Of a stretch of 64,000 nucleotides of DNA, positions 1 through 58,778 are shown in pieces. Origin of the DNA: an uncultured Desulfospira sp. (GTDB lineage Bacteria > Desulfobacterota > Desulfobacteria > Desulfobacterales > Desulfobacteraceae); contig OY760175.1 of NCBI GenBank assembly GCA_963663165.1, positions 4,832,001 to 4,896,000 on the forward strand, in the 5' to 3' direction. Both the position numbers and the translations under genes were made by a program. Below the pieces are notes generated by a model. It saw only the letters and a list, made by a program, of their open reading frames with translations. It was not told the DNA's origin and made no database searches. Numbering within the stretch: position 1 is the first letter of the stretch; the number at the start of each line of letters is the position of its first letter.

Positions 1-1866
1 GATCCGGCCTGGTTGGAGGACATTGGCCGGGACCTTTGCACCTATGCTTACGCCAATCCCCGTTGGGAGAAAAAAAGGGGCGAGGTGGTGGTGGACGAAC
101 AGGTGTCCCTGTTCGGCCTGATCATTGTCCAGAGCAGGCCTAAGGCCTATGGGAAAATCAATCCCGATGAGGCCTGCGAAATTTTTATCCGGCATGCCCT
201 GGTCCAGGGGGAAACCCACATGAAGTTCAAGTTCATGGAAAATAACCTCAAATTAATGGAAAGCCTGGAAGACCTTGAAAACAAAACCCGGAATAAAAAT
301 ATTCTGGCATCGGACGAGGATATTTATTTGTTTTACCAGGCAAGGCTGCCTGTTCCTTTTTATAATATCCGGACCTTTGCCCGGTTTTTAAAAGACCAGG
401 CAGACGACTCATTTTTGCACATGACCCTGGAAGACCTTCAAAAAAGTCAGGTGGACGAGGATCTGCCCATCCTGTTTCCCGATACCCTGAAAACCGAACA
501 CGGACAGTTTGCCTTAGAATACTGCTTTGATCCGGGGGCGGAAAACGACGGGGTGACCATTAAGGTACCGGTTTCCAGGACATCCCAGGTGCCCCGAAAG
601 GATTTGGAAAAACTGGTGCCCGGCCTGTTTGAAGAAAAAATTGCCGCCCTGATCAAGAACCTTCCCAAAGAATACCGGGTCCGGCTGGTGCCGGTCCAGG
701 AAACCGCCGCCGCCATCGCCAAAAAAATCCACGGCCGGAACGAGCCGCTGTTTACGCTGCTTTCAAGCGGTATTCGGGAGCATTACAATGTGACTATCCC
801 GGCATCGGTCTGGTCTGAGGATAACCTTCCCGACCACTTAAGAATGCGGATAGCGGTTCACGATGATAAGGGAAAGCAGATCAAGACCCTAAGAGATCTG
901 TCCCTTTTGGGACAATTCCCGGGCCAAAGCAGTCAAAAGCAGGCCAATGCCGTTGAACAGGCCCGGAAAATCCATGAACGAACCCAGATTACCGACTGGT
1001 CTTTTCCGGATCTGCCGCCCCATATTGAAATCACCCTGGCCGGCGGGTTAAAACAAAAGCTTTACCCGGGCCTTAAAGTTGAGACCGATAATTTGAACTT
1101 AAGGCTGTTTGAGTCAAAGCAAACCGCCGAAATTTCCCATGCCCGGGGCATTAAACAGCTATATGAATTTAAGTTTCCCGATGATTTTAAGGCCTTGCAA
1201 AAGGATGTCAAAACCGCCCCGGGTTTAAAACAGATCGCCCCTTATTTTGATGTTGCCCACAAAGCGTTTGCCCAGAAGGTGGCCGATGCCCTTCTTCGGG
1301 ATATATTTGCCAGAAATTTTAAGACCCAAAAAGAATTTGAGGCCCATGCCCAGGCGGCAAGGCCAGGCCTTTACAACCAGACCCAAAGCTTTATCCGGGT
1401 GATTCAGGATCTCGGGCAAGAATATGAATCCTGCTTTTCCCTGCTCCAGGATCTGTCCCTTAAACACCAGAACCGGCCCGCCACTTTTGCCATCCTAACC
1501 CAGCTGTTCAACGAGTTAAAAAGCCTGGTGCCGCCAAGTTTCCTGGAACTTTACCCGCGGGACAGAATCAGCGAACTGCCAAGGTATCTGTCCTGCCTGG
1601 GGATCCGGGCCCAGCGGGCCGCCGTTGACCCCTCAAAGGAAGCCAGAAAATCAGAGCTGGTCCAGCCCTATCAGCATCGCCTCAATACCCTGGTGGCCTC
1701 ATTGTCGGAAAAATCTTCCAAGGAAAAGGCCCGGCGGACCGAAGACTTTTACTGGCTCCTTGAAGAGTACAAAATCTCCGTATTCGCCCAGGAACTCAAA
1801 ACCCGGGTCAAGGTATCGGCCAAACGGCTGGACAAGGAGCTGCTGAGCATTTCCACTATGATCTGA
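1..1866 (+). CDS. hrpA: ATP-dependent RNA helicase HrpA, C-terminal part (DUF3418 region); gene begins upstream of the window
   Basis: Motifs WEKKRGEVV, FIRHALV, DGVTIKVP, LVPGLFEEKI, WLLEEYKISVFAQEL and VSAKRL typical of the HrpA C-terminus; ORF open at the window edge. Confidence 0.9.
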   Translation, partial: DPAWLEDIGRDLCTYAYANPRWEKKRGEVVVDEQVSLFGLIIVQSRPKAYGKINPDEACEIFIRHALVQGETHMKFKFMENNLKLMESLEDLENKTRNKNILASDEDIYLFYQARLPVPFYNIRTFARFLKDQADDSFLHMTLEDLQKSQVDEDLPILFPDTLKTEHGQFALEYCFDPGAENDGVTIKVPVSRTSQVPRKDLEKLVPGLFEEKIAALIKNLPKEYRVRLVPVQETAAAIAKKIHGRNEPLFTLLSSGIREHYNVTIPASVWSEDNLPDHLRMRIAVHDDKGKQIKTLRDLSLLGQFPGQSSQKQANAVEQARKIHERTQITDWSFPDLPPHIEITLAGGLKQKLYPGLKVETDNLNLRLFESKQTAEISHARGIKQLYEFKFPDDFKALQKDVKTAPGLKQIAPYFDVAHKAFAQKVADALLRDIFARNFKTQKEFEAHAQAARPGLYNQTQSFIRVIQDLGQEYESCFSLLQDLSLKHQNRPATFAILTQLFNELKSLVPPSFLELYPRDRISELPRYLSCLGIRAQRAAVDPSKEARKSELVQPYQHRLNTLVASLSEKSSKEKARRTEDFYWLLEEYKISVFAQELKTRVKVSAKRLDKELLSISTMI

Positions 1867-1886
1867 TTAAGGGGTCAATTAAGGGG

Positions 1887-2864
1887 TCAAGTCTCTCCTT
1901 GACTCATTATGGATTGTCGAACCAAGGCTGTTTTTTTTGATAAGTCCCGGTCATGGGAAAGACGTTGTTTGAACCGGTATATCACGGTACTGACTGTGCT
2001 ATAGCTGTCGATTTTGAAGTATTCTCCTATAGTTTTTAATGATTCCCCGCAGATTTGTCGCGCCAAAAACATTCCCATTGCCCTGGGTTCATTAAAAAAC
2101 GCCCTTTTTGAATAGTACAGTTTGTCTTCGTCGATATTGTAGACCTTACAAATGGCTTGTTTAATTCTGGCTATTTCGGGGGCAAGGCGCTTGGATTCAG
2201 GAACTTCAACGTGCTGTTTCTCCTCAAAAAATTGTTCTTTCACTTGTTCAATAAACCTTTTTCCGCCAAGAATAGCAGGCCATTTTTTCGGGTCTAAAGT
2301 CCGTAATAAATCATCATCGTCCGCTTCACCTATAAAGGCTCGATATGCGCTTGCCTGCGAGCCCGGGGTCGTGGCCAACATGGACAGGATAAAGGATTTG
2401 TGCAGCCATTCCCATTTTTTTGTAACGGAAAGATATCCTTCATGGCTTGACCATTGGTAATCTCCGGGCTTTGCAACTATTTTGGCGCGTACCGGATTTC
2501 GATGAATATATCGAACCAGTTGCAGCAAATAGTTTTCCTCTTCAACCACAAGGGCTTTGTATCTTCCCCGGAATAATTGCCCGTCAAAAGAATGCGCCTT
2601 GTTGAATCGTTGTGTGTAAACACCGTTTATGTGGCGCATGCCTCTTGACAAGTTCGCATCCGGAGTCTGGACCAAAAGGTGATAGTGGTTCGGCATAAGA
2701 CAGAATGCGCTGACACGCAATGCAAAAAGCTCGACAGCCTCAAGCAAAACATTGATAAAGCATTCATAATCTTTTTTTGACTCAAAAATTTTTTCTCTAC
2801 GCCGGCCACGATTTATTACATGATACCAGGCGTTTGGAAATTGTATGCGTAAGGGCCTGGCCAT
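1887..2864 (-). CDS. REP-associated tyrosine transposase-like protein (Y1/HUH, IS200 superfamily) with DnaA domain IV-like C-terminal HTH
   Basis: MARPLRI..YHVINRG, HUH motif MPNHYHLL, GQLFRGRYKA, YIHRNP; C-terminal PRAMGMFLARQ..SLKTIGEYF..YSTV. Confidence 0.9.
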   Translation of the reverse strand: MARPLRIQFPNAWYHVINRGRRREKIFESKKDYECFINVLLEAVELFALRVSAFCLMPNHYHLLVQTPDANLSRGMRHINGVYTQRFNKAHSFDGQLFRGRYKALVVEEENYLLQLVRYIHRNPVRAKIVAKPGDYQWSSHEGYLSVTKKWEWLHKSFILSMLATTPGSQASAYRAFIGEADDDDLLRTLDPKKWPAILGGKRFIEQVKEQFFEEKQHVEVPESKRLAPEIARIKQAICKVYNIDEDKLYYSKRAFFNEPRAMGMFLARQICGESLKTIGEYFKIDSYSTVSTVIYRFKQRLSHDRDLSKKTALVRQSIMSQGET

Positions 2865-2889
2865 GATTATATTGATACCAGCAAGTTTT

Positions 2890-3006
2890 TAATGAGTCAA
2901 GGAGAGACTTGACCCCTATGATTTTCAAGGAGAGACTTGACCCCTATGATTTTAGGAGAGACTTGACCCCTATGATGTTGACCCCTATGATGACCCCTAT
3001 GATTTT
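2890..3006 (+). repeat. Tandem array of progressively truncated terminal-repeat copies
   Basis: Units end in TGACCCC at 2916, 2944, 2970, 2985 and 2997, each followed by TATGA(TTTT). Confidence 0.95.
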
Positions 3007-3710
3007 CTGGAAACCAGGGCGATTGCGGCAATACCGGCACCTAAGAGAATTCCTGCAGAGGGGACCGGGACGGCACCGAATTCAATGTTATCGATACCGG
3101 CCTTACCGTCACCGCCGGTTATTGTAAGGGTAAAGGAACTGATTGGCGTATCTGAAATAAAGGCAAAAAAAGTGCTGCCCCAACCGGTTGCATCAGGGGT
3201 TGGAACCGTAACGGCAACGTCATATTCCGTGCCGTCATTAAACGTAATTGCAATCGGCGAGGGATTATGATCCATCAGGTAAAATGCAAAATAGGTAATT
3301 GGAGAACTAAAGTCAAAAGTGTAATTTGTGGAATCCTGCACAGCCAAGGCAGAGTCTCCAATCGGGTCATTCTTCGTACTTCCCAAGATTGTTGAATTGT
3401 CTTCAGGTGTTGCTACATATGCATATCCCTGACTCGAAGTAATGGTCAGGCCCCCGGAAAGGGTATCACCAAGAATGCTGCCGGTAGAAAAACCACTTTC
3501 AAAATCAATAAGGGTATCCGGCGTTGAGATTCCCAAGGCATTTAACCACGCCGTTCTTTGATCTGTTTTGGCCGCCATAGCGGTTGAATTGTTGGTGCTG
3601 CTGCCTGTACTGGCGGTACAGGAAAATACCGTTACTGTTGCAGCCGCCGCAGACCCGGGGCCCATAAACAAAACTGATAATAGAACAGCGAACAAACCCA
3701 TTTTTTTCAT
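2997..3710 (-). CDS. PEP-CTERM/VPLPA-CTERM sorting-domain exported protein
   Basis: Signal peptide; Ser/Thr-rich body; C-terminal AVPVPSAGILLGAGIAAIALVSRKS; GGAG RBS. Confidence 0.85.
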   Translation of the reverse strand: MKKMGLFAVLLSVLFMGPGSAAAATVTVFSCTASTGSSTNNSTAMAAKTDQRTAWLNALGISTPDTLIDFESGFSTGSILGDTLSGGLTITSSQGYAYVATPEDNSTILGSTKNDPIGDSALAVQDSTNYTFDFSSPITYFAFYLMDHNPSPIAITFNDGTEYDVAVTVPTPDATGWGSTFFAFISDTPISSFTLTITGGDGKAGIDNIEFGAVPVPSAGILLGAGIAAIALVSRKS

Positions 3711-4048
3711 TATAACATCTCCATATCAAAAACAAATTTACCAAACAGTCTGAGAACCGCAAATTTTATAAAGTGAATGACCTTAGGGTGTTCTCTGCCG
3801 CCTTTGCCGCATGGTATCAAAGCCTTGGCAGCCCGGCTGTTAAACCTTTGATGCCTTTTTATATGAAAGTCTCACTAACCTCCTGAGAAGACTTTCATTA
3901 TTTGTTGTGGGCGGTTCTTGGTTGGATAACCAAGACGGCCCGTGGCCGTTATATAAAAACTGAAACCCGGCTCAATTCTGGTCACTTTATTTCATCTGAG
4001 GTCCTGTGCTCCACAGCGCAATAGACCGAACATGAATGCAGGAATATA

Positions 4049-4065
4049 AGCAAAAAAAGTGCCAA
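4049..4065 (-). promoter_or_regulatory. Sigma54 (-24/-12) promoter facing the PEP-CTERM gene
   Basis: Minus strand TTGGCACTTTTTTTGCT matches TGGCAC-N5-TTGC. Confidence 0.75.
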
Positions 4066-4247
4066 TCAAACATGAAAATAAACAGGGACCGGTCGCCCAT
4101 CTCTTTGCCTGGCAGATACCAAAGTCCAATGGGTTTAATTTTAAGATGATTTTTGTTGATAGACCGTCTCATTATGTTTTTAAAATCGAGTCCGACGGTT
4201 CGGGAACCAAAACGCCGGACCTCGCTGTGTTGGGAACTTTTCTTCCC

Positions 4248-4293
4248 AAGTGTGAAGTTTTTTTCTTAAAATTATGAAAAAAACTTCACACTT
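4248..4293. repeat. Perfect 18-bp inverted repeat with 10-nt loop
   Basis: AAGTGTGAAGTTTTTTTC ... GAAAAAAACTTCACACTT. Confidence 0.85.
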
Positions 4294-4381
4294 TTCAGAC
4301 GATACCCACCACAACTGAATCTTATCTAAGGCAATCGCATATAAGAAAGCAGTCTGTCCCGGAATGAAAGATAACTCCAGT

Positions 4382-4453
4382 AAAATGGACTTGGGACTTG
4401 GGGATTGCAGTATCCGTGGCCTCCCCAAGCCCCATATCCCAAGTCCCCATTTT
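4382..4453. repeat. Inverted array of GGGACTT-like heptamers
   Basis: GGACTTGGGACTTGGGGA ... TCCCCAAGCCCCATATCCCAAGTCC. Confidence 0.7.
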
Positions 4454-4594
4454 ATACATTGATCCTTATCACCCAAAGTACGATTAACTATAGGCAAGTT
4501 ACATGCGATCATCCTGCAATCTTATCCTTGACCCCTTATCCATGAAGGGGATACAACTTACGGGAACTTAAATTTTAAAAGAAGGAGAGGAACA

Positions 4595-4780
4595 ATGCAG
4601 CGGGTATATGAGTTTTTAAAGGAATGCGGTCACTATTATCTGGCCACCATAGACGGAGACCGGCCCAGGGTCCGCCCCTTCGGCACCGCCCTAATTTTTG
4701 AGGATAAGCTGTACATTCAGACCGGGAAGGTCAAAGACGTATCCAAACAGATGATGTTTGGGTATAGGGATGCCAGGATC
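4595..4780 (+). pseudogene. Truncated pyridoxamine 5'-phosphate oxidase (NimC/NimA-like) gene
   Basis: YYLATIDGDRPRVRPFG..LYIQTGKVKDVSKQM with a strong RBS; similarity ends after about 53 aa and the frame runs antisense into the next gene. Confidence 0.7.
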
Positions 4781-6089
4781 AGACATCTTCCGGTATATTC
4801 AGTAAAAACCGCCAGGCCGGCAGGATATCGATTTTTCCGGATGCAACGGTTATCTGGTTTTCCTCGCTGCGTGTCACGATGATGCCCCGGGGCAGCGCAA
4901 GTTCAGCCATGGCTTCGGCCAGGGCAGTGGTTTCCCGCTTGCTGGTTTTTGGGTCGGCCATGGTCTCACATACCTGAACCAGCATGCGGGTTGATCCTTG
5001 CCGTCCGGCGATAAAATCAACCTCCCGGCCCGTCCCGGTTTTATAATAAAAGATATCCGGCGTGACCCGGCGCAGTGCAATGTATACCAGATTTTCCAGA
5101 AGATGGCCTGAGTTGACCAGAATGCCGGAACTGGTCGAGGTCACCAAGGCGTGGTCAATGCAGTAAATTTTTTTGGGGTTGGTGTTGGCCTTGGCCAGCG
5201 AGGCGTTAAAAATGCGTACCGTAAATAGAACATAGGCGTCTTCAAACCATTCAAGGTAATTGGAAACAGCGGATTTTGGCGCTTTGTGGCCCAGGGATTT
5301 CAGATAGCCGGTCAGGTTGTTGATGGAATAAAGGGAGCCGGTATTATCCACCAGCCAGTGCGCCAGATCCGTGACCGCTTTTGGATGGGAAATATTATGG
5401 CGTTCAATCAGGTCGCGGAACAGCATCGCGCTGAAATATTCCTGGTGGATTTTCAGCCGCAGCATCCGGTTAAGATCAGCCACCTCAGGGAAACCGCCGG
5501 TTTCCCAGTACGCCTCGAATGCCTTCTGGATGGTCAGCCGTTTTTTAGTTGAGAAAGGACCATTACTCTCGATCCCCCTGCAGTCAAGAAACTCCTGGAA
5601 TGAAAATGGAAACATTTCCCAGGAAAGTGCCCGCCCGCGCATTTGCGTGGCAATTTCCCGGGAGAGCATCTGAGCCGATGATCCGGTAATGGCTACCTCG
5701 CATTTTTCCATCCGCATCAATCGGTCAACAAATGGCTCCCAACCGGATACGACCTGAATCTCATCAAAAAAGCAGTACACCGTTTCAACATTCTTCTTTT
5801 CCGGATAAAGTGAGAAGTATGCCTCGGAAATGATCCCTAAATTGTCATGTTGAAGACGATGCAGACGATCATCAAAGAAATTCAGGTAGAGAATGTTCTG
5901 ACGGGGAACACCTGAGTCCAAAAGCCGTTGCATCAGTTGAAACATGAAGGTTGATTTGCCGCAGCGGCGAACCCCAATGCATACGGTTGCCTTTTCCGGC
6001 ACCGAGGATACCGCCGTCCGTCTGGGCACACCCGTCGGCAGGGTCATTTCCTGGAAATCCAGGATTATTTCCTTGAGGTGGTCAATCAT
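4779..6089 (-). CDS. AAA_14 ATPase with DUF4143 C-terminus
   Basis: Walker A GVRRCGKST, Walker B FFDEIQ, ITGSS, GGFPE, KKIYCID, LLENLV, EVDFI. Confidence 0.9.
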   Translation of the reverse strand: MIDHLKEIILDFQEMTLPTGVPRRTAVSSVPEKATVCIGVRRCGKSTFMFQLMQRLLDSGVPRQNILYLNFFDDRLHRLQHDNLGIISEAYFSLYPEKKNVETVYCFFDEIQVVSGWEPFVDRLMRMEKCEVAITGSSAQMLSREIATQMRGRALSWEMFPFSFQEFLDCRGIESNGPFSTKKRLTIQKAFEAYWETGGFPEVADLNRMLRLKIHQEYFSAMLFRDLIERHNISHPKAVTDLAHWLVDNTGSLYSINNLTGYLKSLGHKAPKSAVSNYLEWFEDAYVLFTVRIFNASLAKANTNPKKIYCIDHALVTSTSSGILVNSGHLLENLVYIALRRVTPDIFYYKTGTGREVDFIAGRQGSTRMLVQVCETMADPKTSKRETTALAEAMAELALPRGIIVTRSEENQITVASGKIDILPAWRFLLNIPEDV

Positions 6090-6230
6090 ACCAACTCCTC
6101 TGGTAATTTTTCTTTCCGATCAGCATATAAACTGGAAATAATTATTACCAGTTATTCTTATAAGTGGCAAGAAAATTTTCTGGTTTTGGATTATTTTTAA
6201 CCCCAGCAGGGGCATCATGAAAGGGAACCG

Positions 6231-7124
6231 TTAAAAATTTTCATCCAGGTTGAAAAACTCAACCGCGTTTTTGGTTGTGATCCTTTCAAGGACTTTATCT
6301 GAAAGCTTATCCGCGGCCAGGACTTTCAGCTCCCGGTCCCATTCATAAGGGATGTTGGGAAAGTCGGATCCGTACATGATCCGGTCCGGCCTGTAACGGT
6401 CAAGGCAAATTTTCTTTTTGACGGGAAAGTAGCCGCCAATGGCCATGGTGGTGTCCAGCCACAAAGTATCGTATGTCTCAATGAGCCGCTGGTATGCGGA
6501 CAGTTCATCCAATCCCAGATGGGGAACACAGATTTTCAGGCCCGGGAAATTCTTTAAAATCTGTTCCACTTTTCCAGCACTGCAAATTATATAGGGATCG
6601 CATCGGTAGGCGGTACTCTTGGGTTCCCGGCCGGCATGAATCACCAGGGGCTTGTTGTTGGCCCTGCAGCAGTCATACAAAATGTCCATGGCGTCGCTGT
6701 TCATGTCAAAACACTGGACATGGGCATGAAGTTTAAGCCCGCCAAGCCCGTCATCAAAGGCCTCCTGTAAAATCCTGCCCGCCTTATCCTCGCCCGGATA
6801 GACCGTGGCCATACCGGTGACACGGCCTGGAAATTGTCGGCAGCGGACCGCCATATAGGTGTTCAATTGTCGTGAAATTCCAGGCTTGTGCGCATATTGA
6901 AGGGCGATAATGTGATGGATACCCCGGGAGAGTAAAAATTCAAATATTTGGGTGGTTCTCATCCGGTACCGGATCTGCCACGCATGGTCATCAAACCATT
7001 TCCAGATGGAGGCCAGAATCTCTTTGGGGAAGATGTGCACATGGGCATCGATAATGAGGGGAAGCCCTGAAGGAACCTCGCTGCCTTCCGGATCATCAAA
7101 ATACGGCATGTTCGGTCTGAGCAT
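6231..7124 (-). CDS. Amidohydrolase family (TIM-barrel) protein
   Basis: IIDAHVH, GLKLH, IHAG, PHLG, YGSDFP. Confidence 0.85.
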   Translation of the reverse strand: MLRPNMPYFDDPEGSEVPSGLPLIIDAHVHIFPKEILASIWKWFDDHAWQIRYRMRTTQIFEFLLSRGIHHIIALQYAHKPGISRQLNTYMAVRCRQFPGRVTGMATVYPGEDKAGRILQEAFDDGLGGLKLHAHVQCFDMNSDAMDILYDCCRANNKPLVIHAGREPKSTAYRCDPYIICSAGKVEQILKNFPGLKICVPHLGLDELSAYQRLIETYDTLWLDTTMAIGGYFPVKKKICLDRYRPDRIMYGSDFPNIPYEWDRELKVLAADKLSDKVLERITTKNAVEFFNLDENF

Positions 7125-7536
7125 TTTGCCTTCCGTATCTGCTGTTCATTTTGACTGGATTTTTAATTTTTACCAATCCGCTAGATTAGCACACAACCCA
7201 AACCCTCATAAAGCATTATCTGATTCAGTCCCCAAATCAGCCACATGAATATTCCGGCATAATATTTGAGTATCTTTGGGAATTTACCAAGGCAATTTGG
7301 CCTTGTTCCTTTGCGCGGGTTTTTGGGAAGGGCAGCCTGCTGTTTTCAAGTGTCAGGCCTGAAACCATAAAAGCAGGTGCCATAAAATAATGGCACTGCC
7401 CTTATCCGGCACGGTATTCTAAACGTTTTTCCAGGTTGCCGGCTGGTCCGTCCCATGGTGTGCAGATGTTAAAAAGTGCTAAATTTCAATTGGTTATCTT
7501 TGCGTCAAAAGAAAATGCCCTTGGATCTCCCTGTGT

Positions 7537-7552
7537 TGGCATGGTTATGGCA
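7537..7552 (+). promoter_or_regulatory. Sigma54 promoter of the molybdoenzyme gene
   Basis: TGGCATGGTTATGGCA (GG-N10-GC); identical copy at 10023. Confidence 0.7.
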
Positions 7553-7637
7553 ATTCCTCAAGGCCAGGAAATTTGAATATTGATATGTCCCGGCCAATGG
7601 CTCCGGGTAAAGACCTATTCCGCAAGGGAGAATAAAT

Positions 7638-9722: not shown

Positions 9723-9745
9723 TACACGGTTCTGCTGTGATGATT

Positions 9746-9850
9746 TTTGTGGGCTTACGTGGACAGGGTGGACTTTGTGGACAAACCGGCAGGCCGTGGG
9801 GGGCTGTCGGACTGTCCACCCCGTCTGCTCCGTCCACTTAAGTCCACAAA
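9746..9850. repeat. Inverted array of 9-nt GTGGACnnn repeats
   Basis: GTGGACAGG GTGGACTTT GTGGACAAA ... CTGTCCAC, CCGTCCAC, AAGTCCACAAA. Confidence 0.8.
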
Positions 9851-10022
9851 GCCTGATCTCCATGTGGACAGCGCCCTGCAGTAAAAAAAATGCAGCGCAA
9901 GTTTTTTATTGCACTGTCCCCGCGTTGGTTCCCCGGCAACCGCCCTGCACCAAAAAACAATTTGGCAGAATTTATTAATGATTTCAAAAATATAAAACAA
10001 AAAAGCCCCCATGCTAACCCCA

Positions 10023-10038: not shown

Positions 10039-10077
10039 AATCCCAAAATTTAAGTTTAACCCGACACCGGAGGATAT

Positions 10078-15675: not shown

Positions 15676-15775
15676 GGGGACGCCCTTAATTTATGTCTTT
15701 GGGCAAGGTTTCTGATGGTTAAAATTGATTTTAATGAATTTTGTGATTTTAAGTTAAAAAGTTAAGGGCATCCCC
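15676..15775. repeat. 100-bp AT-rich segment bounded by GGGGA(C/T)GCCCTTAA inverted repeats
   Basis: GGGGACGCCCTTAATTT (15676-15692) vs AAGTTAAGGGCATCCCC (15759-15775), 15/17 complementary. Confidence 0.7.
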
Positions 15776-15799
15776 ACATCCGTCCCGGGCTTGAGCGGC

Positions 15800-15856
15800 A
15801 GGGTAGGAGCGGTCCATGCCCGCGAACCGATCGCGGGCATGGACCGCTCCTACCCT
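15800..15856. repeat. GTAG-type REP doublet (REPIN-like), copy 1
   Basis: GTAGGAGCGGTCCATGCCCGCGA accga TCGCGGGCATGGACCGCTCCTAC. Confidence 0.85.
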
Positions 15857-16071
15857 TGTATCCACCGAAATGAGTGGGATAAATGGGTGACCCCATTTGT
15901 CCGGTTAAGATTTTCCATTGAAACCCGAAACACAGGTTTCTATAATAAGGCATGGGAAATTTTCATTAACACCCAAAACCGCCCATGAAAGCTATGAAGG
16001 TCTTGGAACCGGCAGCCCTAACACCCTTCGGTCTAAACCCCTTCAGCCTTTCATAGAAAGGTGACCAGGCG

Positions 16072-20792: not shown

Positions 20793-20877
20793 TGGGATAA
20801 ATGGGGATCAAAGTTAAATCAGACGTTACATAATTAATTTTACTCCGCCCCAATCCCCCCCAACAATCCCCCCATCC
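20793..20877. repeat. Degenerate GGGG...CCCC mini-element with stuttered ends between convergent genes
   Basis: GGGATAAAT GGGGATCAAAGTTAAAT ... ATTTTACTCCGCCCCAAT CCCCCCCAACAAT CCCCCCATC. Confidence 0.5.
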
Positions 20878-47889: not shown

Positions 47890-47891
47890 TT

Positions 47892-50626: not shown

Positions 50627-50771
50627 CGGGCTTCGGCTTCTAAAAAATAAGACCAGCGTAACCGGATTTATAATAAACTTAATCTTCAATAAACCTGAAC
50701 GGAGACCGGATGCGCGCCTCCAAGGGAACCCGGCATCCGGCAGCTATCGTTACATTTTTGGTCAATGCAAG

Positions 50772-50822
50772 GTTGGAGCGGGCCATGCCCGCGATCGAAT
50801 CGCGGGCATGGCCCGCTCCAAC
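50772..50822. repeat. REP doublet (REPIN-like), copy 2, nested inside a GGAGACC/GGTTTCC hairpin
   Basis: GTTGGAGCGGGCCATGCCCGCGA tcgaa TCGCGGGCATGGCCCGCTCCAAC. Confidence 0.85.
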
Positions 50823-51033
50823 CCTACCGCTCAAACCAGGGAACTTGACGGTTTCGGTCTCCCGCCGCCTTTTCTCCGGTTTCCGTTTTTTACATTTACA
50901 AATGATTTCAAAATATCATGCCGGATTATAAATTCGATTACCCTGAAAATAAGGTTCTATCCCCTTGACAAAACAATATAAAGTTGCAATGGTTTAACCA
51001 TTGATATATGAAATTAAATGCAGGAGATCGGCC

Positions 51034-51945
51034 ATGATCAATAAACTCATCAGCAACATCCTTCCCCACATGCCGGAAAAACTGGTATGGATGGTTTCAA
51101 AAAATTATATTGCGGGTAAATCCGTTCAGGATGTTTCTGCAGCATGCCTTGACCTGAACCAAAATCAGGTCATGGTCACCATTGATATTCTCGGGGAGTT
51201 TATTGAAACCCTTGACCAGGCCAAGGCCAATATGGATGAATACGTGGCGCTGATCCACGCCATTCAGGAGCAGAACATCAACGGCAACTACTCGGTCAAA
51301 CCCACCATGTTCGGGTTGCTTTTGGACGAGGAAGCCTGCTATCAGCACATCCGGGAAATTGTCAAAACCGCTGCCGCCCACAACAATTTTATCCGCATTG
51401 ACATGGAAGACTCCCCCTGTGTGGACAAGTCCATTGCCCTGTTCCGGCGGATCAAGGCAGAGTTTCCTGAAAACATTGGCCTGGTCCTCCAGGCCTATCT
51501 GAAAAGGACCCTGTCCGACATTGAGTCCATGCTGGATTTGAAAACCGAATCTCAGGACTTGAATTTTCGCCTGGTCAAGGGAATTTATATTGAGCCGGCC
51601 GCCATTGCCTATAAAGATCCGGCGCAAATCAATGCCCATTTTATGGAAGACCTTGAATTTATGATCAAAAACGGGGTCTATGCCGCCATTGCCACCCATG
51701 ATAAGGCCTTAATCGACGGGGCCCTTGACTTGATTCAAAAATACGATCTGGCCAAAGACCGGTACGAATTTCAGATGCTTTACGGGGTTACCCCGGGCCT
51801 TCGCTCCGAGTTGGTGGGTGCCGGCCATCCCATGCGGGTATATGTCCCTTACGGCGAACACTGGTTTGGCTATTCCACCCGGCGGCTCAAAGAAAACCCC
51901 TATATTGTCAAGCACATTGTCAAGGCGGTGTTTTATAAAGGATAA
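51034..51945 (+). CDS. Monofunctional proline dehydrogenase
   Basis: SVKPT, RIDMEDS, LQAYLKR, RLVKG.Y, IATHD, EFQMLYG, RVYVPYG..Y..RRL.E. Confidence 0.93.
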   Translation: MINKLISNILPHMPEKLVWMVSKNYIAGKSVQDVSAACLDLNQNQVMVTIDILGEFIETLDQAKANMDEYVALIHAIQEQNINGNYSVKPTMFGLLLDEEACYQHIREIVKTAAAHNNFIRIDMEDSPCVDKSIALFRRIKAEFPENIGLVLQAYLKRTLSDIESMLDLKTESQDLNFRLVKGIYIEPAAIAYKDPAQINAHFMEDLEFMIKNGVYAAIATHDKALIDGALDLIQKYDLAKDRYEFQMLYGVTPGLRSELVGAGHPMRVYVPYGEHWFGYSTRRLKENPYIVKHIVKAVFYKG

Positions 51946-51958
51946 GGGCTCGACGTCA

Positions 51959-52654
51959 TCAGATCCAGACCTTTAATTCAGTCAACGCGGTTGAGGCCAT
52001 CAGATACGGTTGTTGGGCGGCCAATGCGGCTGCCTGCATCTCATTGAACAGTCTGTTCAAGGACCACGTTTCAATGTGGCGGGCGGGGGCATCGCTGTAA
52101 TCGGAAACATATCCCCACATATGCAGGAGCGCATTCCTGATCCCGCCGGCTGATGGTGCTGTTCGTGATGTTTCGGTGAGCAGGACGGCAAGCTCTTTGA
52201 AATCCTGAGCAGGAGACATTTGGGCCACCCCCCGGCCGATTTTTTTGTAAAGGTTGGGGTCCCGGGCCAAAACCGAGTATTTGTGATGGGCCCATATGTC
52301 CTGGGCTGTATGGGGAAGCCCGATTCTTCCGGGCTCTTTGTCCCGGTATTTTTCACAAAGAATGGCAAACTGGTCAAACGGGGAGTCGATATAGGTTTGA
52401 GGCCACATCCCCTTGTTTTTGCGTGTGGTTACCGGGGACTTGTCCGTGAAGTTCCTTAAAGACATTTCCGCGGCCAGCAGGCGGTGCCTTAAATTCAGCG
52501 CCCACCCGCAATCAACCCATCTCAAGGTCTCAGGATGCCGGGCATATCCTTTCTTTTTGTTGACAATGATGGAGACGATGCCATGAAGTTCACGGTGTTC
52601 GCCCAGCAAACTTTGCCGGTTTAAATACCCTGGATGAATGTCCCAGACTCTCAT
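51959..52654 (-). CDS. Pyrimidine-dimer DNA glycosylase-like domain fused to DUF1722-like domain
   Basis: MRVWDIHPGYLNRQSLLGEHRELH, GYARHPE; WAHHKYSVLAR, NALLHMWGY. Confidence 0.75.
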   Translation of the reverse strand: MRVWDIHPGYLNRQSLLGEHRELHGIVSIIVNKKKGYARHPETLRWVDCGWALNLRHRLLAAEMSLRNFTDKSPVTTRKNKGMWPQTYIDSPFDQFAILCEKYRDKEPGRIGLPHTAQDIWAHHKYSVLARDPNLYKKIGRGVAQMSPAQDFKELAVLLTETSRTAPSAGGIRNALLHMWGYVSDYSDAPARHIETWSLNRLFNEMQAAALAAQQPYLMASTALTELKVWI

Positions 52655-52657
52655 GAT

Positions 52658-53551
52658 TTATCCTAACGGACCAAACCCGTATAGCCTGGCCGGGTTGTCC
52701 ACCAGGATTCCGGTTAAGGTCTTTTCATCGGGGACCCATGCGGCCAGAAGGTCTAACAAATCCCCGTCATTGGGCATGGGCACATTAATACAGGGATGGG
52801 GCCAGTCCGTGGCCCAGACCACCCGGTCCGGATTGGTTTCAATGATTTTTCGGGCATAAACCGCGGTGTCGGTGTAGGGAACGGTCTTTTGGCCGGTAAT
52901 CCGGTAAGCGCCCGAGACCTTGACCCAGGCCCGGCCTTTTTCCAGCATGGCCAGCATTTTAACGAATCCCGGATGATTTACCCCAAGGGATGCGGGCATA
53001 TGTCCCATATGGTCAAACACCACATCCACAGGCAAATCGGCCAGGGTGTCCAGATCAGGGAATTGCGAGACATCCACCAGCATTTGCAGATGCCAGCCCA
53101 GAGGGGCAATCTTGCGGGCCAGGTTTCTGATATCAGATATGGTAATGCCGCTTTTAAACAGCAGGTTGATCCGGATCCCCCGGGCACCCCTTTCGTGCAT
53201 GCGCTTAAGCTCCCCGGCATCAACAGCCTCATCCACCACCACCACAGCCCTGAAATTCTCCCCGCCCTGGGCCACGGCATCCAGGGTGGCCCGGTTGTCT
53301 GTGCCGTATACCGATGGCTGAACAATGACGGCCCGGTCCAGGCCCAGGGTGGCCAGCATCTTTTGATAATCTGTCAGAGATGCTTCGGGGGGCGTGTAAG
53401 ACCGGTGAGGGGTGTAAGGATACAGGGTTTCAGGCCCCAGGATGTGGGCATGGCAGTCACAGCCCCCCGGGGGCGCTTTAAACCCGGGGGCTTTTGGATT
53501 TGGATCTGCGCCGGCGCATTCCGGAATATGGGGCTCTTTGGTCAGTGCCAT
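52658..53551 (-). CDS. Amidohydrolase (2-pyrone-4,6-dicarboxylate lactonase-like)
   Basis: CDCHAH, VQPSVYGTDN, GARGIR, FDHMG, WVKVSG.YR, WATDWPH. Confidence 0.88.
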   Translation of the reverse strand: MALTKEPHIPECAGADPNPKAPGFKAPPGGCDCHAHILGPETLYPYTPHRSYTPPEASLTDYQKMLATLGLDRAVIVQPSVYGTDNRATLDAVAQGGENFRAVVVVDEAVDAGELKRMHERGARGIRINLLFKSGITISDIRNLARKIAPLGWHLQMLVDVSQFPDLDTLADLPVDVVFDHMGHMPASLGVNHPGFVKMLAMLEKGRAWVKVSGAYRITGQKTVPYTDTAVYARKIIETNPDRVVWATDWPHPCINVPMPNDGDLLDLLAAWVPDEKTLTGILVDNPARLYGFGPLG

Positions 53552-53733
53552 TCAATTATCAGCCATTGGTTGAAGGCTGGCGGCTGTCAGGATTGCCGGT
53601 TCCGTGGCCTTCATAAAATGATTGTTTTTAACATTTTTTGAGTTGAAACTTCCAGATAAACCTGATGTAAAGGAAAGGATTCATTGGTCGGAAATGGAAT
53701 AACCGTTCAAATTTTAGGTAAAAAGGGTTTCTT

Positions 53734-54657
53734 ATGAAAAATCATTACATCCCTGAAGACCGCTTTCCAATGGCCCTCAGTCCCAATGTATTCATGCTGG
53801 GCAACTATTTTTTCAACCTTTTTCTGGTCCGGGGGAATACGGGCTCAGCCCTTTTTGAAACGGGAATTTCCGGCATCTGCGATGCCGTGATCGCACAACT
53901 TGATGTATTGGGGGCTAAACCGGATTTTCTGATCCCAAGCCATCCCCATACCGACCATATCACCGGCCTGCCCGGGTTGGCACAACAATTTCCCAACGCA
54001 AAAATCCTGAGCGGTGCCGGTGCCGCGAATTTTCTTTCCCATCCCAAAGCCGCTGCGCCCCTGATCAGGGACGACCGCTTCATGTCCCAAAGCCTTGAAA
54101 AAATGGGCATCCGGCCGGGAAGGCCTTCCCTTGAAACGGTCCCGGACCTCTCTTTGGCCCGGGAGATTGACGCCCCCTGCCGGTTTGACCTGGGCGGCAT
54201 TACATTGGAACTTATCCCGGTCCCGGGGCATTCCCCCGGCAACCTGATCGGCCGGGTCCTGGAGGAAAATATAATATTGAGTGCCGACAGCATAGGGTTC
54301 CATTTTCCGGGCCGCTGGTTCTATCCCCTCTTTTTTACCGGGGTCAGGGACTATCTTTCCACCCTTTCGTTTATCCGGGACCTTGCCCCTGCCATGATCT
54401 GCCCGGCCCACCAGGGACCGCTGAAAGGAGAGGCAGCCTTAAACGCCATAAAGGAATCCACGGACACCACCCGCGAGATCATCCGCCGGATCAACACCGC
54501 AGGCCTGTCCGACGAACAGTTTGCCATGGAACTGTTCACCAAAGGGTATAAGGATGAGTTTACCCTCTACACCCGGGAAAATATCCTGAACTGTTCCCGG
54601 CTTCTGGTCAAACGGGCCCGGGAGGGGGTCAGGGAGGTGGGGTCAAACCTTGATTAG
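53734..54657 (+). CDS. MBL-fold metallo-hydrolase
   Basis: SHPHTDHITG, PGHSPG, PAHQG; the last codons run through a GGGGTCAAACCTTGA repeat. Confidence 0.9.
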   Translation: MKNHYIPEDRFPMALSPNVFMLGNYFFNLFLVRGNTGSALFETGISGICDAVIAQLDVLGAKPDFLIPSHPHTDHITGLPGLAQQFPNAKILSGAGAANFLSHPKAAAPLIRDDRFMSQSLEKMGIRPGRPSLETVPDLSLAREIDAPCRFDLGGITLELIPVPGHSPGNLIGRVLEENIILSADSIGFHFPGRWFYPLFFTGVRDYLSTLSFIRDLAPAMICPAHQGPLKGEAALNAIKESTDTTREIIRRINTAGLSDEQFAMELFTKGYKDEFTLYTRENILNCSRLLVKRAREGVREVGSNLD

Positions 54658-54694
54658 TGAATAAGTTGATATATCTTGGTCAAGATCTGCCCCC
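54620..54694. repeat. Gene-less doublet of element-2 ends between convergent genes
   Basis: GGGAGGGGGTCA GGGAGGT GGGGTCAAACCTTGATTA (54639-54656; 18/18 with 56214-56231) ... TCAAGATCTGCCCCC (54680-54694). Confidence 0.75.
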
Positions 54695-56134
54695 ATTCCC
54701 ATCCATTTCCCGCTTAAGGATATTCAGGGAGTTGCGGGCCTGCTGATAATCGGGGTTCAGTTCCAGGGCCTTCTCAAAACTGGTTCTGGCCTTGGAAAAA
54801 TCGCCTTTTTTATAATAGACATACCCCAAAGAGTTATAGGCCTCCACAATGGCGGCATCCTTTTGCACCACATCCAGAAGAATTTTTTCAGCCTGGTCAA
54901 ACCGTCCCAAATCGCCTAAGGCCACGGCCATGTTAAAAGTGGCCGGCAAAAGGTCGGGCTGGATATCCAGCGCCTTTTGAAATTCATTGATGCTGGCCTC
55001 CTTTTCGCCCTGGTTGAACAATTCATTGCCCTTTTCAAAATGGGGGGCGGCCACTTCTGGCGGGGTCTCGGGCATCCGGACAGGCCCAAGCCCGGTATCG
55101 GGAACAAGATAATTGGCCCGGGCCAAAGGACTGTTAAAATCGGCCAGTTCCATCATTTTATGGGGCAGAACACAAACACTGAAAATTTCATCCACGCCGG
55201 CGGTAAATTCAATCCAGGTCAACTCCCTGCCGGTATTGATATCCACCACCCAGACCCCGCAGATCCGCCGGGGCAGGCGGGTGACAGGCAGGCCGCTGAA
55301 CGTGGCGCTCTCCCTGACCTTGGAAACGCCGATAAAGGCCAGGTCGTTAATCAGCTGAAATCCTCTGGTAAACCCCGGCACCCGGGACTTTTCCATGACG
55401 GTTCCCGTATCCGGGTCCAACCGGCACAATGCACCTTTGCCGGATTCCAGAAACCAGATCGCATCCTGGTGCCATCTCGGGGAATGGGGCATACTCAATC
55501 CTTCGGCCAGGATCTTATTGGTGTCAATATCCATGAGCATCCCGCCGTTGGCCTTATGGGCCCGCCACCCCATGGGGTCATCGGTCTTTCCCAGAAAGGT
55601 GACGTATCTAGGGCGCCCGTCCCGCATGCCAAGGCCGTTAAGATGGCACTTATCCACCGGTGAGAGATCAGAGATAAACGGCGGTTTCCACACCGGTACA
55701 AAGCTGTTTGCCCCGTCATTGACGCACAGGCAGGAGAACTTGGTATTGATGAAATAAAGCCGGTCGGAAAATGCCATTTCATGGATATCAATATCCCCTG
55801 TAAAATGGATATTAAAGGGCAGATAACAGGCGGTGAACACCTTTTCCTTATCCCCCCGGGGGGCTGCGGTGGAAAGATTCTGGAAATGCCATAAGCTGTG
55901 GCCCATGCCGGCCCACAGATTCCTGCCGTGGGTGGTCATGCCCATGGGCCGTAAAAAATCTCTATAACGGATATCCAGTTTTCCGTTTTCCTGGCCCACA
56001 AGTAGAATTTTGCCGGACTGATAGGTACTGACAACAAGGGTAATCCCGAATTGTTCCAGCATTTTTACAAGGCTGTCAGGATAATTAAAGGAGATGGTCT
56101 GGGGTATTTTCCCCCCGGTCTTATGGCCACTCAT
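54680..56134 (-). CDS. TIGR03032/DUF4915 family protein with C-terminal TPR repeats
   Basis: STYQSGK, TGDIDIHEM, NTKFSCL, WKPPFIS, DKCHLNG, GLSMPHSPRW, PGFTRG; TPR tail. Confidence 0.88.
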   Translation of the reverse strand: MSGHKTGGKIPQTISFNYPDSLVKMLEQFGITLVVSTYQSGKILLVGQENGKLDIRYRDFLRPMGMTTHGRNLWAGMGHSLWHFQNLSTAAPRGDKEKVFTACYLPFNIHFTGDIDIHEMAFSDRLYFINTKFSCLCVNDGANSFVPVWKPPFISDLSPVDKCHLNGLGMRDGRPRYVTFLGKTDDPMGWRAHKANGGMLMDIDTNKILAEGLSMPHSPRWHQDAIWFLESGKGALCRLDPDTGTVMEKSRVPGFTRGFQLINDLAFIGVSKVRESATFSGLPVTRLPRRICGVWVVDINTGRELTWIEFTAGVDEIFSVCVLPHKMMELADFNSPLARANYLVPDTGLGPVRMPETPPEVAAPHFEKGNELFNQGEKEASINEFQKALDIQPDLLPATFNMAVALGDLGRFDQAEKILLDVVQKDAAIVEAYNSLGYVYYKKGDFSKARTSFEKALELNPDYQQARNSLNILKREMDGNGGRS

Positions 56135-56243
56135 TTTTTTCCAATCTGTTCAAGTGTGGTCTGCTACGCATTTCTCCTTATAGTTCAGTTTTCCCGCCTT
56201 GGCAAACAACTATGGGGTCAAACCTTGATTATAGCATTAAAAA

Positions 56244-56272
56244 TTGACTGGATTTTCAGATGCTGATAATAT
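56244..56272 (+). promoter_or_regulatory. Sigma70-like promoter predicting a leaderless transposase mRNA
   Basis: TTGACT-N17-TAATAT, 6 nt before ATG 56279; no RBS. Confidence 0.55.
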
Positions 56273-56278
56273 AACGGC

Positions 56279-57253
56279 ATGTCAAGACCTTTGAGAATAG
56301 AATTTGACGGTGCTTATTACCATGTCCTCGCCCGAGGAAATCATCACGGCCCCATTTTTAATACTGAAAATGATTACAATACTTTTCTTGAGTTATTAGA
56401 GGAGCTTACTGATCGGTTTCTGATCACTATATATGCCTATGTTTTAATGGGGAACCATTATCATCTGCTGTTGCAGACCCACCGGGCCAATCTTTCAAAA
56501 GCCATGCAGTGGCTTGGAACGACTTATACCAGACGGTTCAACATAAAAAACAAGCAAAGTGGGCATCTGTTCCAGGGGCGGTTTAAAAGCATTCTGGTGG
56601 AAAACACCTCATATTTCTTTACCCTTTCTTGTTATATCCATAGAAACCCGCTGCGGGCTCAGATGGTTAAAAGGCTGATGGATTATAAATGGAGCAGCTA
56701 CCCCTATTATGCATATCCACGAAAACAGCCGTCCTGGCTGGACACAGACCAAATTCTTTCACAGGTTGGCCAGGGCAAGGAGAGGCATTCATTGTACCGG
56801 AAAAAGGTTCAGGCTTACAGCGAAGAAAAGGAGTCCGTCTGGGAGCAGGTGAAATTCGGGTTTCTTTATGGATCTAAACCGTTTGCAGATAGCATTAAAG
56901 ACAAATATCTGCCGGACAGTCCGGACGGGGAGCGGCCCCAGTTGAACAGAATTTTAAAATCCTATTCCCCCGGGATTCTGATCAAACAGGCTGAACAGGT
57001 ACTCAATTGTGATATTGAATATTTCCGCCATACCAGCAGACTGACCGGGGCGGACCTGGACAAAAGAGATACCCTTGTCATCCTGCTATGGGAAATTGGA
57101 AGGTACAGCAACACAGAGATAGGAGAACTGCTTGGTCTTACACACTCATCGGTCAGTAAACGGTTGACCCGGGCCAAAGGTCTTGTGAAAAGCAGGGAAA
57201 ATAATCCTGTGAAAATAAATTATGATAAAATAAAGGCTATAATCAAGGTTTGA
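56279..57253 (+). CDS. REP-associated tyrosine transposase-like protein (Y1/HUH) with C-terminal HTH
   Basis: MSRPLRI..YHVLARG, MGNHYHLL, GHLFQGRFKS, YIHRNP, WSSY; YSNTEIGELLGLTHSSVSK. Confidence 0.9.
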   Translation: MSRPLRIEFDGAYYHVLARGNHHGPIFNTENDYNTFLELLEELTDRFLITIYAYVLMGNHYHLLLQTHRANLSKAMQWLGTTYTRRFNIKNKQSGHLFQGRFKSILVENTSYFFTLSCYIHRNPLRAQMVKRLMDYKWSSYPYYAYPRKQPSWLDTDQILSQVGQGKERHSLYRKKVQAYSEEKESVWEQVKFGFLYGSKPFADSIKDKYLPDSPDGERPQLNRILKSYSPGILIKQAEQVLNCDIEYFRHTSRLTGADLDKRDTLVILLWEIGRYSNTEIGELLGLTHSSVSKRLTRAKGLVKSRENNPVKINYDKIKAIIKV

Positions 57254-57263
57254 CCCCAATTCC

Positions 57264-58778
57264 ATGACCCCAATTCCATTCATATGGCTGATGCTTCTTC
57301 TGACAGCGATTCCCCAGGCATGGGCAGGCCCGGAGACCCGGCCGCCGGCGGTTTCCGGCAGCTTTTATCCGGCAGATCCGGGCAAACTCAAGGCTGTGAT
57401 TGCCAATTATACGGACCGGGCCGACCTTTCGGGTGTCCACCTGCCGGAAAATGCGACCCTCAAGGCCCTAGTCATGCCCCATGCCGGTTATGTCTACTCG
57501 GGGCCTGTGGCGGCCCATGTCCATTTTTTGCTCAAGCCCCATGCCTTTTCCAAGGTTATCGTGATGGGGCCGGACCACCGGGTGGGGTTTTCAGGGTGTG
57601 CCGTATCCGATGCCAAAAATTGGCTGACCCCTTTGGGAAGCGTCCCTGTCCATCCGGATGCGGCCGCGCTGATCAAAGCGTCCTTGATATTCAGTCCGGT
57701 TGCCGAATCTGACCGGCTTGAACATGGTATTGAAGTGATCCTTCCCTTTCTTCAGACCTATGTGAAAGATTTCTCCCTGGTGCCCGTTGTCACCGGTTCC
57801 TGTGACTTTAAACCGGTTGCCCAATACCTGGCCGGCCTGATTGATCCGTCTACCCTGGTGGTGGTCAGTACGGACTTGTCCCATTACCTTCCTTATAACC
57901 GGGCCATTCATAAAGACCAGGAAACCATCTGGATGATCCTGAACCTGGATCAGGAACGGCTGGCAAAATCGTCCAATGCGGCCTGCGGAAAAATCCCCTT
58001 GCTCATTCTCATGGAAATTGCAAAAATGAAGCAGTGGACCCCCTACCTGCTCCACTATTCAAATTCCGGGGACACGGAAGGGGACAAACAGCGGGTGGTG
58101 GGATATACGGCCATGGCTTTTTTTCAGGAACCGGAAAGCGGCACAGGCCTTAACCCCGGCAACCTGCCCCCGGAAACCAACGGGAACGAAACCGTGAAAC
58201 ATGAATTTTCAGAAGATCAGGGAAAACTGCTGGTAGAACTGGCCCGGAAGACCATTGCCGGAAAACTGGGAAAGCCGCCGTCCCAAGAGGCCGCGTCATC
58301 CCTGGAACAGGCCCTTGACCAGGCCGTGTTCAAGCAGGACCTGGCAAGCTTTGTCACCCTTCATATCAATGGCCGGCTCAGGGGATGCATCGGCACCCTT
58401 GAGGCCAGTGAGCCCCTGGTGGACAATGTCCGGAACAACGCCCTGAACGCCGCGTTCAGCGATCCCCGGTTTTCCAAATTAAGCCGGGCCGAGCTGGACC
58501 TGATTGATATTGAAGTCAGCATCCTGACCCCGCCGGAAAAGCTGGCCTATTCAGATGCCCAGGACCTTTTATCCAAGCTTGAGCCCGGGGTCCACGGCGT
58601 GATCTTAAAAAAGAACTGGGCCCGGGCCACCTTTTTGCCCCAGGTCTGGGACCAGCTTCCCGACAAAAAAGATTTTTTGTCCCACCTTTGCCAGAAAGCC
58701 GGCCTGTCGGCCAATGAATGGAAAAAAGGCGATCTTGAAGTATTCACCTACCGGGTCCAATATTTTGAAGAAGAATAG
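57264..58778 (+). CDS. AmmeMemoRadiSam protein B (Memo) fused to protein A (AMMECR1)
   Basis: RPPAVSGSFYP, PHAGYVYSG, GPDH, EHGIEV, STDLSHY, NSGD..VVGY; FVTL..LRGCIG, DPRF, ATFLPQVW, KAG. Confidence 0.92.
   Translation: MTPIPFIWLMLLLTAIPQAWAGPETRPPAVSGSFYPADPGKLKAVIANYTDRADLSGVHLPENATLKALVMPHAGYVYSGPVAAHVHFLLKPHAFSKVIVMGPDHRVGFSGCAVSDAKNWLTPLGSVPVHPDAAALIKASLIFSPVAESDRLEHGIEVILPFLQTYVKDFSLVPVVTGSCDFKPVAQYLAGLIDPSTLVVVSTDLSHYLPYNRAIHKDQETIWMILNLDQERLAKSSNAACGKIPLLILMEIAKMKQWTPYLLHYSNSGDTEGDKQRVVGYTAMAFFQEPESGTGLNPGNLPPETNGNETVKHEFSEDQGKLLVELARKTIAGKLGKPPSQEAASSLEQALDQAVFKQDLASFVTLHINGRLRGCIGTLEASEPLVDNVRNNALNAAFSDPRFSKLSRAELDLIDIEVSILTPPEKLAYSDAQDLLSKLEPGVHGVILKKNWARATFLPQVWDQLPDKKDFLSHLCQKAGLSANEWKKGDLEVFTYRVQYFEEE

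Follow-up and report, generated by a model that had tools for sequence, protein, structure and literature searches.

Two transposase-bearing units, element 1 and element 2, were studied in a 64,000-nucleotide stretch of DNA (the window, G000:C1:4832001-4896000) from an uncultured Desulfospira sp. whose genome, G000, is a 6.74-Mb single contig of 50% G+C and 96.7% completeness. Both units are very probably TIRtrons, in which the gene for a TIRYT, a TIR-associated tyrosine transposase that combines a RAYT-like Y1/HUH nuclease for single-stranded DNA with a DnaA-domain-IV-like helix-turn-helix, is framed by its own GGGG-tagged inverted repeats, and gene-less copies of the ends are scattered in the manner of miniature inverted-repeat transposable elements (MITEs) or REPINs. 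The system is of a known, little-studied kind. Its little-documented trait is the re-copying of its own ends together with a few neighbouring bases, referred to here as stutter, and there is a strong family-wide excess of such short tandem duplications across the junction of flank and end. New here are the counts of the ends of the second paralog across congeners, the movement of element 1 as a unit, and the enrichment of the junction stutter with its recurrence in other phyla.

The two elements carry divergent Y1/HUH genes, the products of which share 35% identity over 305 residues (Table 1). Each gene is present as a single copy in G000, and nine weaker Y1-like matches are found elsewhere in the genome. 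An earlier interpretation made from the letters alone (the sequence-only reading) had ascribed to both genes one architecture with perfect, paralog-specific inverted ends, and this was borne out: the 27-mers of element 1 begin with GGGGTCAAGTCTCTCC and the 22-mers of element 2 with GGGGTCAAACCTTGATT. The ends of both elements open with GGGGTCAA, beyond which the inner sequence differs between the paralogs. As had also been claimed, both genes end in a stop codon formed by the TGA of TGACCCC (1887-1889 on the minus strand; 57251-57253), and tandem re-copies are present at three of the four ends, the exception being the end at 56214. In the left stutter of element 1 the unit TTAAGGGGTCAA consists of 4 nt of flank and the first 8 nt of the end, and the second copy continues into the true end; the stutter begins 1 nt past the stop codon (1864-1866) of a HrpA-like gene. 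The rungs of the right ladder of this element combine 5-9 nt of outer flank (..ATCATA) with the first 20, 17, 8 and 7 nt of the end, the outermost rung overlapping the TAG stop of the open reading frame (ORF) 2997-3710 on the minus strand. At element 2 the first ATG of the long ORF 57264-58778 falls within the right stutter. GGGGTCA occurs 32 times in the window where 16.25 +/- 3.8 occurrences are expected, a number that was reached in none of 100 shuffles.

Both proteins are matched by the Pfam family Y1_Tnp, with E-values of 5e-15 for protein 1 and 7e-13 for protein 2. Protein 1 also contains Bac_DnaA_C (Pfam, 7e-11). The alignment of protein 2 with protein 1 runs on through the tail, where at the same place only sub-threshold helix-turn-helix (HTH) matches were obtained for protein 2. 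The best NCBIfam model for both is REP_Tyr_transpos (78.6 and 68.3 bits); the IS200 model NF033573 scores 21.7 bits against a cut-off of 55. H60, H62, Y119, N123 and P124, that is the HUH histidines and the tyrosine motif YxxxNP, are invariant in an alignment of 16 homologous sequences. When compared with solved structures, protein 1 alone gave no match at E <= 0.01 and the profile of the 16 sequences was required. With this profile the tail matched domain IV of DnaA (1j1v, 1e-11), and TnpA_REP (4er8, 1e-7) was found with a better value than the ISDra2 TnpA (0.03).

RAYT-like genes with long flanking inverted repeats were named TIRYTs, and their units TIRtrons, by Di Nocera, De Gregorio and Rocco (2013; BMC Genomics 14:522, PMC3733652), who described a shared GGGGWSAS motif, arms overlapping the 3' end of the gene, and dispersed single, dimeric and grouped copies. 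Later, 20 of 26 TIRYTs were placed in TnpA-Y1 subclass 2.1 (Quentin, Siguier, Chandler and Fichant, 2018; BMC Genomics 19:475, PMC6006769); its subclass 2.1.2, with tails of the Bac_DnaA_C, HTH_23 or HTH_28 type and the end consensus GGGG[AT][CG]A[CG], was equated with TIRYT. With the TIRtrons described in the portions of these papers drawn on here, both units of the window share the RAYT-like Y1/HUH protein with its conserved HUH residues and catalytic tyrosine, long terminal inverted repeats instead of GTAG-type repetitive extragenic palindromes (REPs), an arm that overlaps the 3' end of the gene, repeats that are specific for each paralog within one genome, and, for paralog 2, a moderate abundance of dispersed singles, dimers and groups. 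That paralog 1 is without a dispersed family corresponds to what PMC3733652 reports for some genes. The long TnpA_REP-like protein with a C-terminal Bac_DnaA_C/HTH domain matches subclass 2.1.2 in architecture. In contrast to the corresponding portions of PMC6006769, in which no REP-like sequences were found near the genes, the ends and dispersed doublets are plain here.

The sequence-only reading had taken the architecture to be undescribed and had proposed a categorically new mobile system. Although its structural description is accurate, and the TIRYT/TIRtron class is thinly covered in the literature, such novelty is very improbable, as the GGGGWSAS inverted repeats, the overlap with the 3' end of the gene and the dispersed families (PMC3733652), the Bac_DnaA_C/HTH tails of subclass 2.1.2 (PMC6006769) and the tandem reiteration of REP or REPIN units with flanking DNA, reported for Pseudomonas REPINs, were all published before. 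In the text of PMC3733652 used here such reiteration is mentioned for clusters of GTAG REPs only, and ladders of partial ends plus flank at TIRYT junctions were not found described in the literature searched.

The dispersion of the ends was determined for each paralog. The 27-mer of paralog 1 has exactly 2 genomic copies, inverted and both at its own gene. For the end of paralog 2, an 18-mer was found in 25 exact copies in G000 (28 at <=2 mismatches), 16 of which sit in 8 inverted doublets of 55-150 bp; tandem groups are present as well, and these satellites sit at gene ends. In several of the doublets the sequence shared with the left end of element 2 extends past the inverted repeat, so that these doublets look like internally deleted, MITE-like derivatives. 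At the end junctions inspected by eye no direct target duplication was seen. Other elements of the same kind in G000 have the ends GGGGTCAGAGTAAAATTA (35 copies at <=2 mismatches) and GGGGACACGA (27 copies) and carry shorter Y1 genes without the tail. The proposal of a REPtron-like Y1/HUH system with cognate ends and gene-less satellite copies is supported.

The localization of the ends and elements was then compared with that in the congeners G001 and G002. In G001, which possesses an ortholog of gene 2, 33 copies of the paralog-2 end were present at <=1 mismatch, with 0 for the reversed-pattern control. G002, which has no ortholog of gene 2, contains 1 near-copy. Across the three congeners the paralog-2 end family co-occurs with its cognate gene. 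Element 1 is 89.5% identical between G000 and G001 over 1035 bp, and the limits of the homology coincide exactly with the outer ends of the inverted repeats. The element is located on another contig in G001, where it adjoins a truncated gene; the right flank of the G001 copy maps to the middle of a gene in G000, and its left flank has no match there. A second copy in G001 is without 353 internal bases. A clean empty site for element 1 was sought in G001, where 78 unrelated bases were found instead, and contigs of the public runs X3 and X6 showed the same replacement at this site. Element 1 has moved as one piece, the limits of which are precisely its GGGG/CCCC ends.

Around element 2, G000 and G001 are collinear at 90% identity over 3.97 kb, and the shuffling of accessory genes suggested by the sequence-only reading is not supported. 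The paralog-2 satellites are mostly common to both genomes, several of those in G001 having no counterpart in G000; for about 8 of the 17 satellite groups of G001 the flanks are non-collinear in G000 or find no match there, as counted without a control set of G001 positions. A rival reading is that the two genes are domesticated, immobile RAYT-like host genes, and that the end copies persist because they serve the host, for example in terminating transcription or stabilizing mRNA. The single-copy state of each TIRYT gene, the syntenic position of element 2, the shared satellite sites at gene ends and the generally vertical inheritance of RAYTs, as put forward in PMC5581495, would all fit such a role. 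However, element 1 is found at different places in G000 and G001 and has left a deleted second copy in the latter, some satellites are peculiar to G001, and homologs are present at up to 8 places per genome in relatives. Domestication of both genes is for these reasons improbable.

TIRYTs are widespread. A homolog of protein 2 was detected in 24 of 41 related genomes (G000 included; E <= 1e-20), with up to 8 matches per genome, and further homologs come from many phyla. Of 30 loci in the same order, 20 were flanked by an exact inverted repeat with (G)GGGTCA or GGGGAC in it, and in 11 the stop codon was the TGA of TGACCC or TGACTCC. The wider sample comprised 79 loci from many phyla, of which 7 were dropped for short flanks and 72 were evaluable. 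Here an exact inverted repeat of at least 12 bp was present in 47 loci and (G)GGGWSA at the outer part of the inverted repeat in 34; the stop codon lay in or at the right arm in 31 loci, and TGACCC was found in 16. As the detector demands exact matches, these counts of the wider sample are lower bounds. The ends of the relatives carry GGGGTCAG or GGGGTCAA. The examination of homologs for inverted GGGGTCA/GGGGACA ends, which the sequence-only reading had suggested as a check, was therefore positive both within the order and across phyla.

An end was scored as stuttered when its first 6 bases recurred as a direct copy no more than about 100 nt upstream and 10 or more bases matched around this copy. 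Of the 90 ends of four families in G000, 27 were stuttered by this measure, or 21 of 79 after these had been collapsed to independent junctions. The controls gave 100 of 20000 random positions (0.5%) and 12 of 2618 other GGGGTCA/GGGGACA sites, and at least 8 of these 12 positive sites proved to be additional end families of this kind. The 'control' GGGGTCA sites include G000:C1:2879932-2879990 and 1812515-1812560, where more ends of the GGGGTCAGGTCTTGAA type lie, with ladders of up to five rungs. A set of 18 TIRtrons, which included 16 from other genomes within the order, showed stutter at 12 of the 36 ends; across phyla it was present at 13 of 76 ends, in 12 of 38 elements.

For the innermost pair of copies in G000, the re-copied flank reached 5-10 nt outside GGGG in 20 of the 21 junctions and 7 or 8 nt in 13 of them. 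The re-copied part of the end measured 6-9 nt in 11 junctions and 12-30 nt in the others. The 'flank' is site-specific in the paralog-1 and paralog-2 families; in the GGGGTCAGAG and GGGGACACGA families it is conserved between copies and may be element sequence. A rule for the order of the ladders, with longer inner rungs, holds for the right end of element 1 and was rejected as it is reversed at other loci. The units differ between lineages. At the right junction of element 2, GACCCCAATTCCAT is present twice in G000 and GACCCCATTTCG twice in G001; the stutter unit at the 54639 site also differs between the two genomes, and several sites are stuttered in one genome only. Since orthologous junctions hold different units, rungs have been made after the lineages of G000 and G001 split.

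The stutter is best explained, we infer, by repeated nicking, short extension and rejoining by the transposase. Such nicking and rejoining at TGACCCC, as proposed by the sequence-only reading, is plausible because stutters are strongly enriched and lineage-specific at orthologous sites. The TIRYT enzyme would recognise the GGGGTCA-tagged end. Because of the GTCAA..TTGAC palindrome that follows GGGG in this clade, an identical small hairpin is present on one strand at either end, a feature shared with IS200/IS605; the left hairpin would be preceded by GGG as a 5' tail and the right one followed by CCC as a 3' tail. This arrangement would allow single-strand peel-and-paste of the IS200/IS605 type on either strand: single-stranded DNA may be nicked and the ends moved by a reaction of this type without target duplication. 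The stutter would then be the scar of repeated abortive action on resident ends. A nick would be made a few bases (median 7) outside GGGG, a host polymerase would add a short stretch of the end to the 3'-OH, in many cases as far as GGGGTCA or GGGGTCAA, and the new 3'-OH would attack the tyrosine-linked 5' end and so reseal it to the extended strand. A nick-extend-rejoin scheme of this kind was drawn for the amplification of bacterial interspersed mosaic elements (BIMEs) by TnpA_REP (Ton-Hoang et al., 2012; PMC3333891, legend of Figure 7). That the stutter is an in-vivo record of TIRYT chemistry, with each rung representing one abortive cycle cut about 7 nt outside GGGG, is put forward tentatively. 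If true, the boundaries of the stutter units map the cleavage and strand-transfer points of the TIRYT class, and the lineage-specific rungs at orthologous sites show the enzyme still acting where nothing transposes.

Alternatively, the TIRtrons are real and the stutter stems from replication error, i.e. slippage, fork stalling or template switching at hairpins or cruciforms or at a tightly bound protein. The doublets can indeed fold into long hairpins that are based exactly at the GGGG/CCCC junction, but stutters are also present at solo ends, at ends 1 kb apart and in end families without a palindrome. Microhomology of 1-4 nt occurs at some unit junctions (k+n exceeds the period in 7 of 21), but many units are joined without it, or with 3-5 extra bases. 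A weak trend with the direction of replication was observed in 7 of 41 versus 14 of 38 junctions (p = 0.07); the value of p = 0.011 obtained before collapse refers to non-independent ends. For this strand test the origin of replication was set by GC skew at about 4.0 Mb, with dnaA located at 2.117 Mb. Fill-in followed by end-joining was set aside as a source of the stutter, as no match to the Ku family was obtained in G000; end-joining repair is therefore unlikely, which leaves replication-based routes. On the other hand, the restart points are concentrated 5-10 nt outside GGGG irrespective of the sequence of the flank, which suggests that the distance is measured from a bound protein. Replication error as the origin of the stutter is on balance somewhat unlikely. 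As to the replichores themselves, the cumulative GC skew of G000 turns at about 4.0 Mb and 0.7 Mb, and the sole full-length dnaA, at 2.117 Mb, is situated within a 100-kb bin of unusually strong negative skew.

A number of observations weigh against mobile TIRtrons with an enzymatic stutter. Both proteins score slightly below the 80-bit cut-off of the NCBIfam RAYT equivalog NF047646, and GGGGTCAA fits the GGGGWSAS motif of PMC3733652 at 7 of 8 positions, with A in place of C or G as the eighth base. For paralog 1 there is no dispersed end family; its end is confined to the two termini of the element and their stutters. Element 2 occupies the same syntenic locus in G000 and G001, and most of the paralog-2 satellites recur in G001, which indicates that transposition is rare. 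By eye no conserved dinucleotide was seen at the outer stutter boundary, unlike the C|T of TnpA_REP, and the microhomology of 0-4 nt at some unit junctions is compatible with polymerase slippage too. No hairpin is evident in the GGGGTCAGAG.. and GGGGACACGA.. families, whose 6-7 nt outside GGGG are conserved. This suggests that one cleavage geometry may not fit all families. Finally, the literature search yielded no report of biochemical or in-vivo activity for any TIRYT.

The system was further compared with two better-known ones. With REPIN-RAYT systems and the E. coli REPtron (Bertels and Rainey, 2011, PMC3116915; PMC3333891), as far as the parts of those papers used here go, it shares a single-copy Y1 gene with its own inverted flanking repeats, gene-less inverted doublets as the likely mobile unit, and tandem clusters that include flanking sequence, often beside the gene, for which a model of local amplification has been published. 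It differs from them in that the tag is GGGG and not GTAG, with a short or absent palindrome; that the protein has double the length and ends in an HTH tail; that the copy numbers are 2 and about 25-30 (tens, not hundreds); and that the re-copied units are mostly partial ends of 12-30 bp and not whole REPINs. HUH/Y1 chemistry, the lack of a target duplication and the same small hairpin at both ends on one strand are shared with IS200/IS605 (IS608, ISDra2). In contrast, terminal inverted repeats are absent from IS200/IS605 elements, which usually occur in several copies, whereas perfect repeats and single-copy genes are found here; the low score with the IS200 model and the weak profile match to the ISDra2 TnpA, both given above, also set the two apart.

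G000 may be regarded as a natural experiment, in which two paralogs have distinct cognate ends and one element has moved as a unit, while in the congener pair the end family appears only with its gene. The quantified junction stutter would predict the cut sites of the enzyme and could guide the first enzymology of the TIRYT class. The distinct ends of the paralogs, the unit movement, the congener pair and the quantified scar together make a concrete in-vitro test possible.

Table 1. Positions in the window of the two elements, their ends and stutters, and further ends.
Feature	Position	Strand	Description
TIRYT gene 1	1887-2864	-	325 aa; RAYT-like Y1/HUH domain and DnaA-domain-IV-like HTH tail
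TIRYT gene 2	56279-57253	+	324 aa; RAYT-like Y1/HUH domain and HTH tail; locus syntenic in congener G001
Element 1 left terminal inverted repeat	1883-1909	+	27 bp; GGGG tag and GTCAAG...CTTGAC palindrome; holds the stop of gene 1
Element 1 right terminal inverted repeat	2890-2916	-	27 bp; perfect inverted copy of 1883-1909
Element 1 left stutter	1867-1882 (two copies span 1867-1890)	+	12-bp TTAAGGGGTCAA twice; period 12, k 5, n 8
Element 1 right stutter ladder	2917-2997	-	four partial units; periods 28, 54, 69, 81
Element 2 left terminal inverted repeat	56214-56235	+	22 bp; no stutter
Element 2 right terminal inverted repeat	57236-57257	-	22 bp; perfect inverted copy; within the last codons of gene 2, contains TGA
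Element 2 right stutter	57252-57279	-	14-bp unit GACCCCAATTCCAT twice
Solo paralog-2 end	54620-54656 (end proper 54639-54656)	+	preceded by one imperfect flank-plus-GGGGTCA re-copy
Degenerate solo end, third GGGGTCA family (GGGGTCAGAGTAAAATTA)	20794-20819	+	22/25 positions, 1 gap; usual GGATAAAT flank
Two third-family (GGGGTCAGAG) termini fused head to head	15877-15903	.	GGATAAAT-GGG / TGACCCC-ATTTGTCC, no body between

Three places in the window had been listed by the sequence-only reading as gene-less doublets. One of them, at 15676-15776, is an inverted pair matching at 13 of 14 positions, with at most about four loosely related copies genome-wide; whether it belongs to these end families is uncertain. 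The other two turned out to be solo ends: the one at 20793 is a degenerate end of the third family, and the one at 54620 a stuttered paralog-2 end that supplies the last codons and the TAG stop of a metallo-beta-lactamase-fold gene (53734-54657). The fused termini at 15877-15903 each keep their usual 8-nt flank and are broken 3 and 7 nt into the ends. This looks like the footprint of an excision or deletion, its break points matching common stutter lengths. As to the accessory neighbours named in that reading, TIGR03032 and the C1 peptidase were confirmed, but the 237-aa 'PEP-CTERM' ORF had no family match at E <= 1e-5.

Paralog-2 doublets were also found on either side of small genes. At G000:C1:596421-597312 a small J-domain-like ORF lies between two 55-bp doublets, the flanks extending the palindrome, and the arrangement is kept in the congener (G001:C1:4118659-4119470). 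At G001:C2:729632-730338 an acetyltransferase-like ORF lies between two near-identical 93-bp doublets, and the sequences on the outer sides of this pair lie some 380 kb from each other in G000. For element 1, record 3 of the public run X1 (placed on window 1880-2838) is a contig of lower depth, 12.8 versus 142.5, from the likely source sample, with a diverged related end and gene. This points to a sister element in a second organism or replicon.

Other repeats were encountered as well. A 184-aa classical RAYT-like gene at G000:C1:1954461-1954874 has hairpins of the GGTGGGCA type on its flanks, which indicates that REP-type and TIR-type tyrosine-transposase systems coexist in G000. A separate REP-like family is represented by a long near-perfect hairpin with the arm GGGTAGGAGCGGTCCATGCCCGCG at window 15801-15856, and also near 50770; this arm has 55 copies genome-wide at <=3 mismatches, many of them as close inverted pairs. 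Finally, window 3850-3960 contains a repeat roughly 100 nt long that has no relation to the TIRtron ends and is present at more than 70 places in the congener G001, at some of them head to tail.

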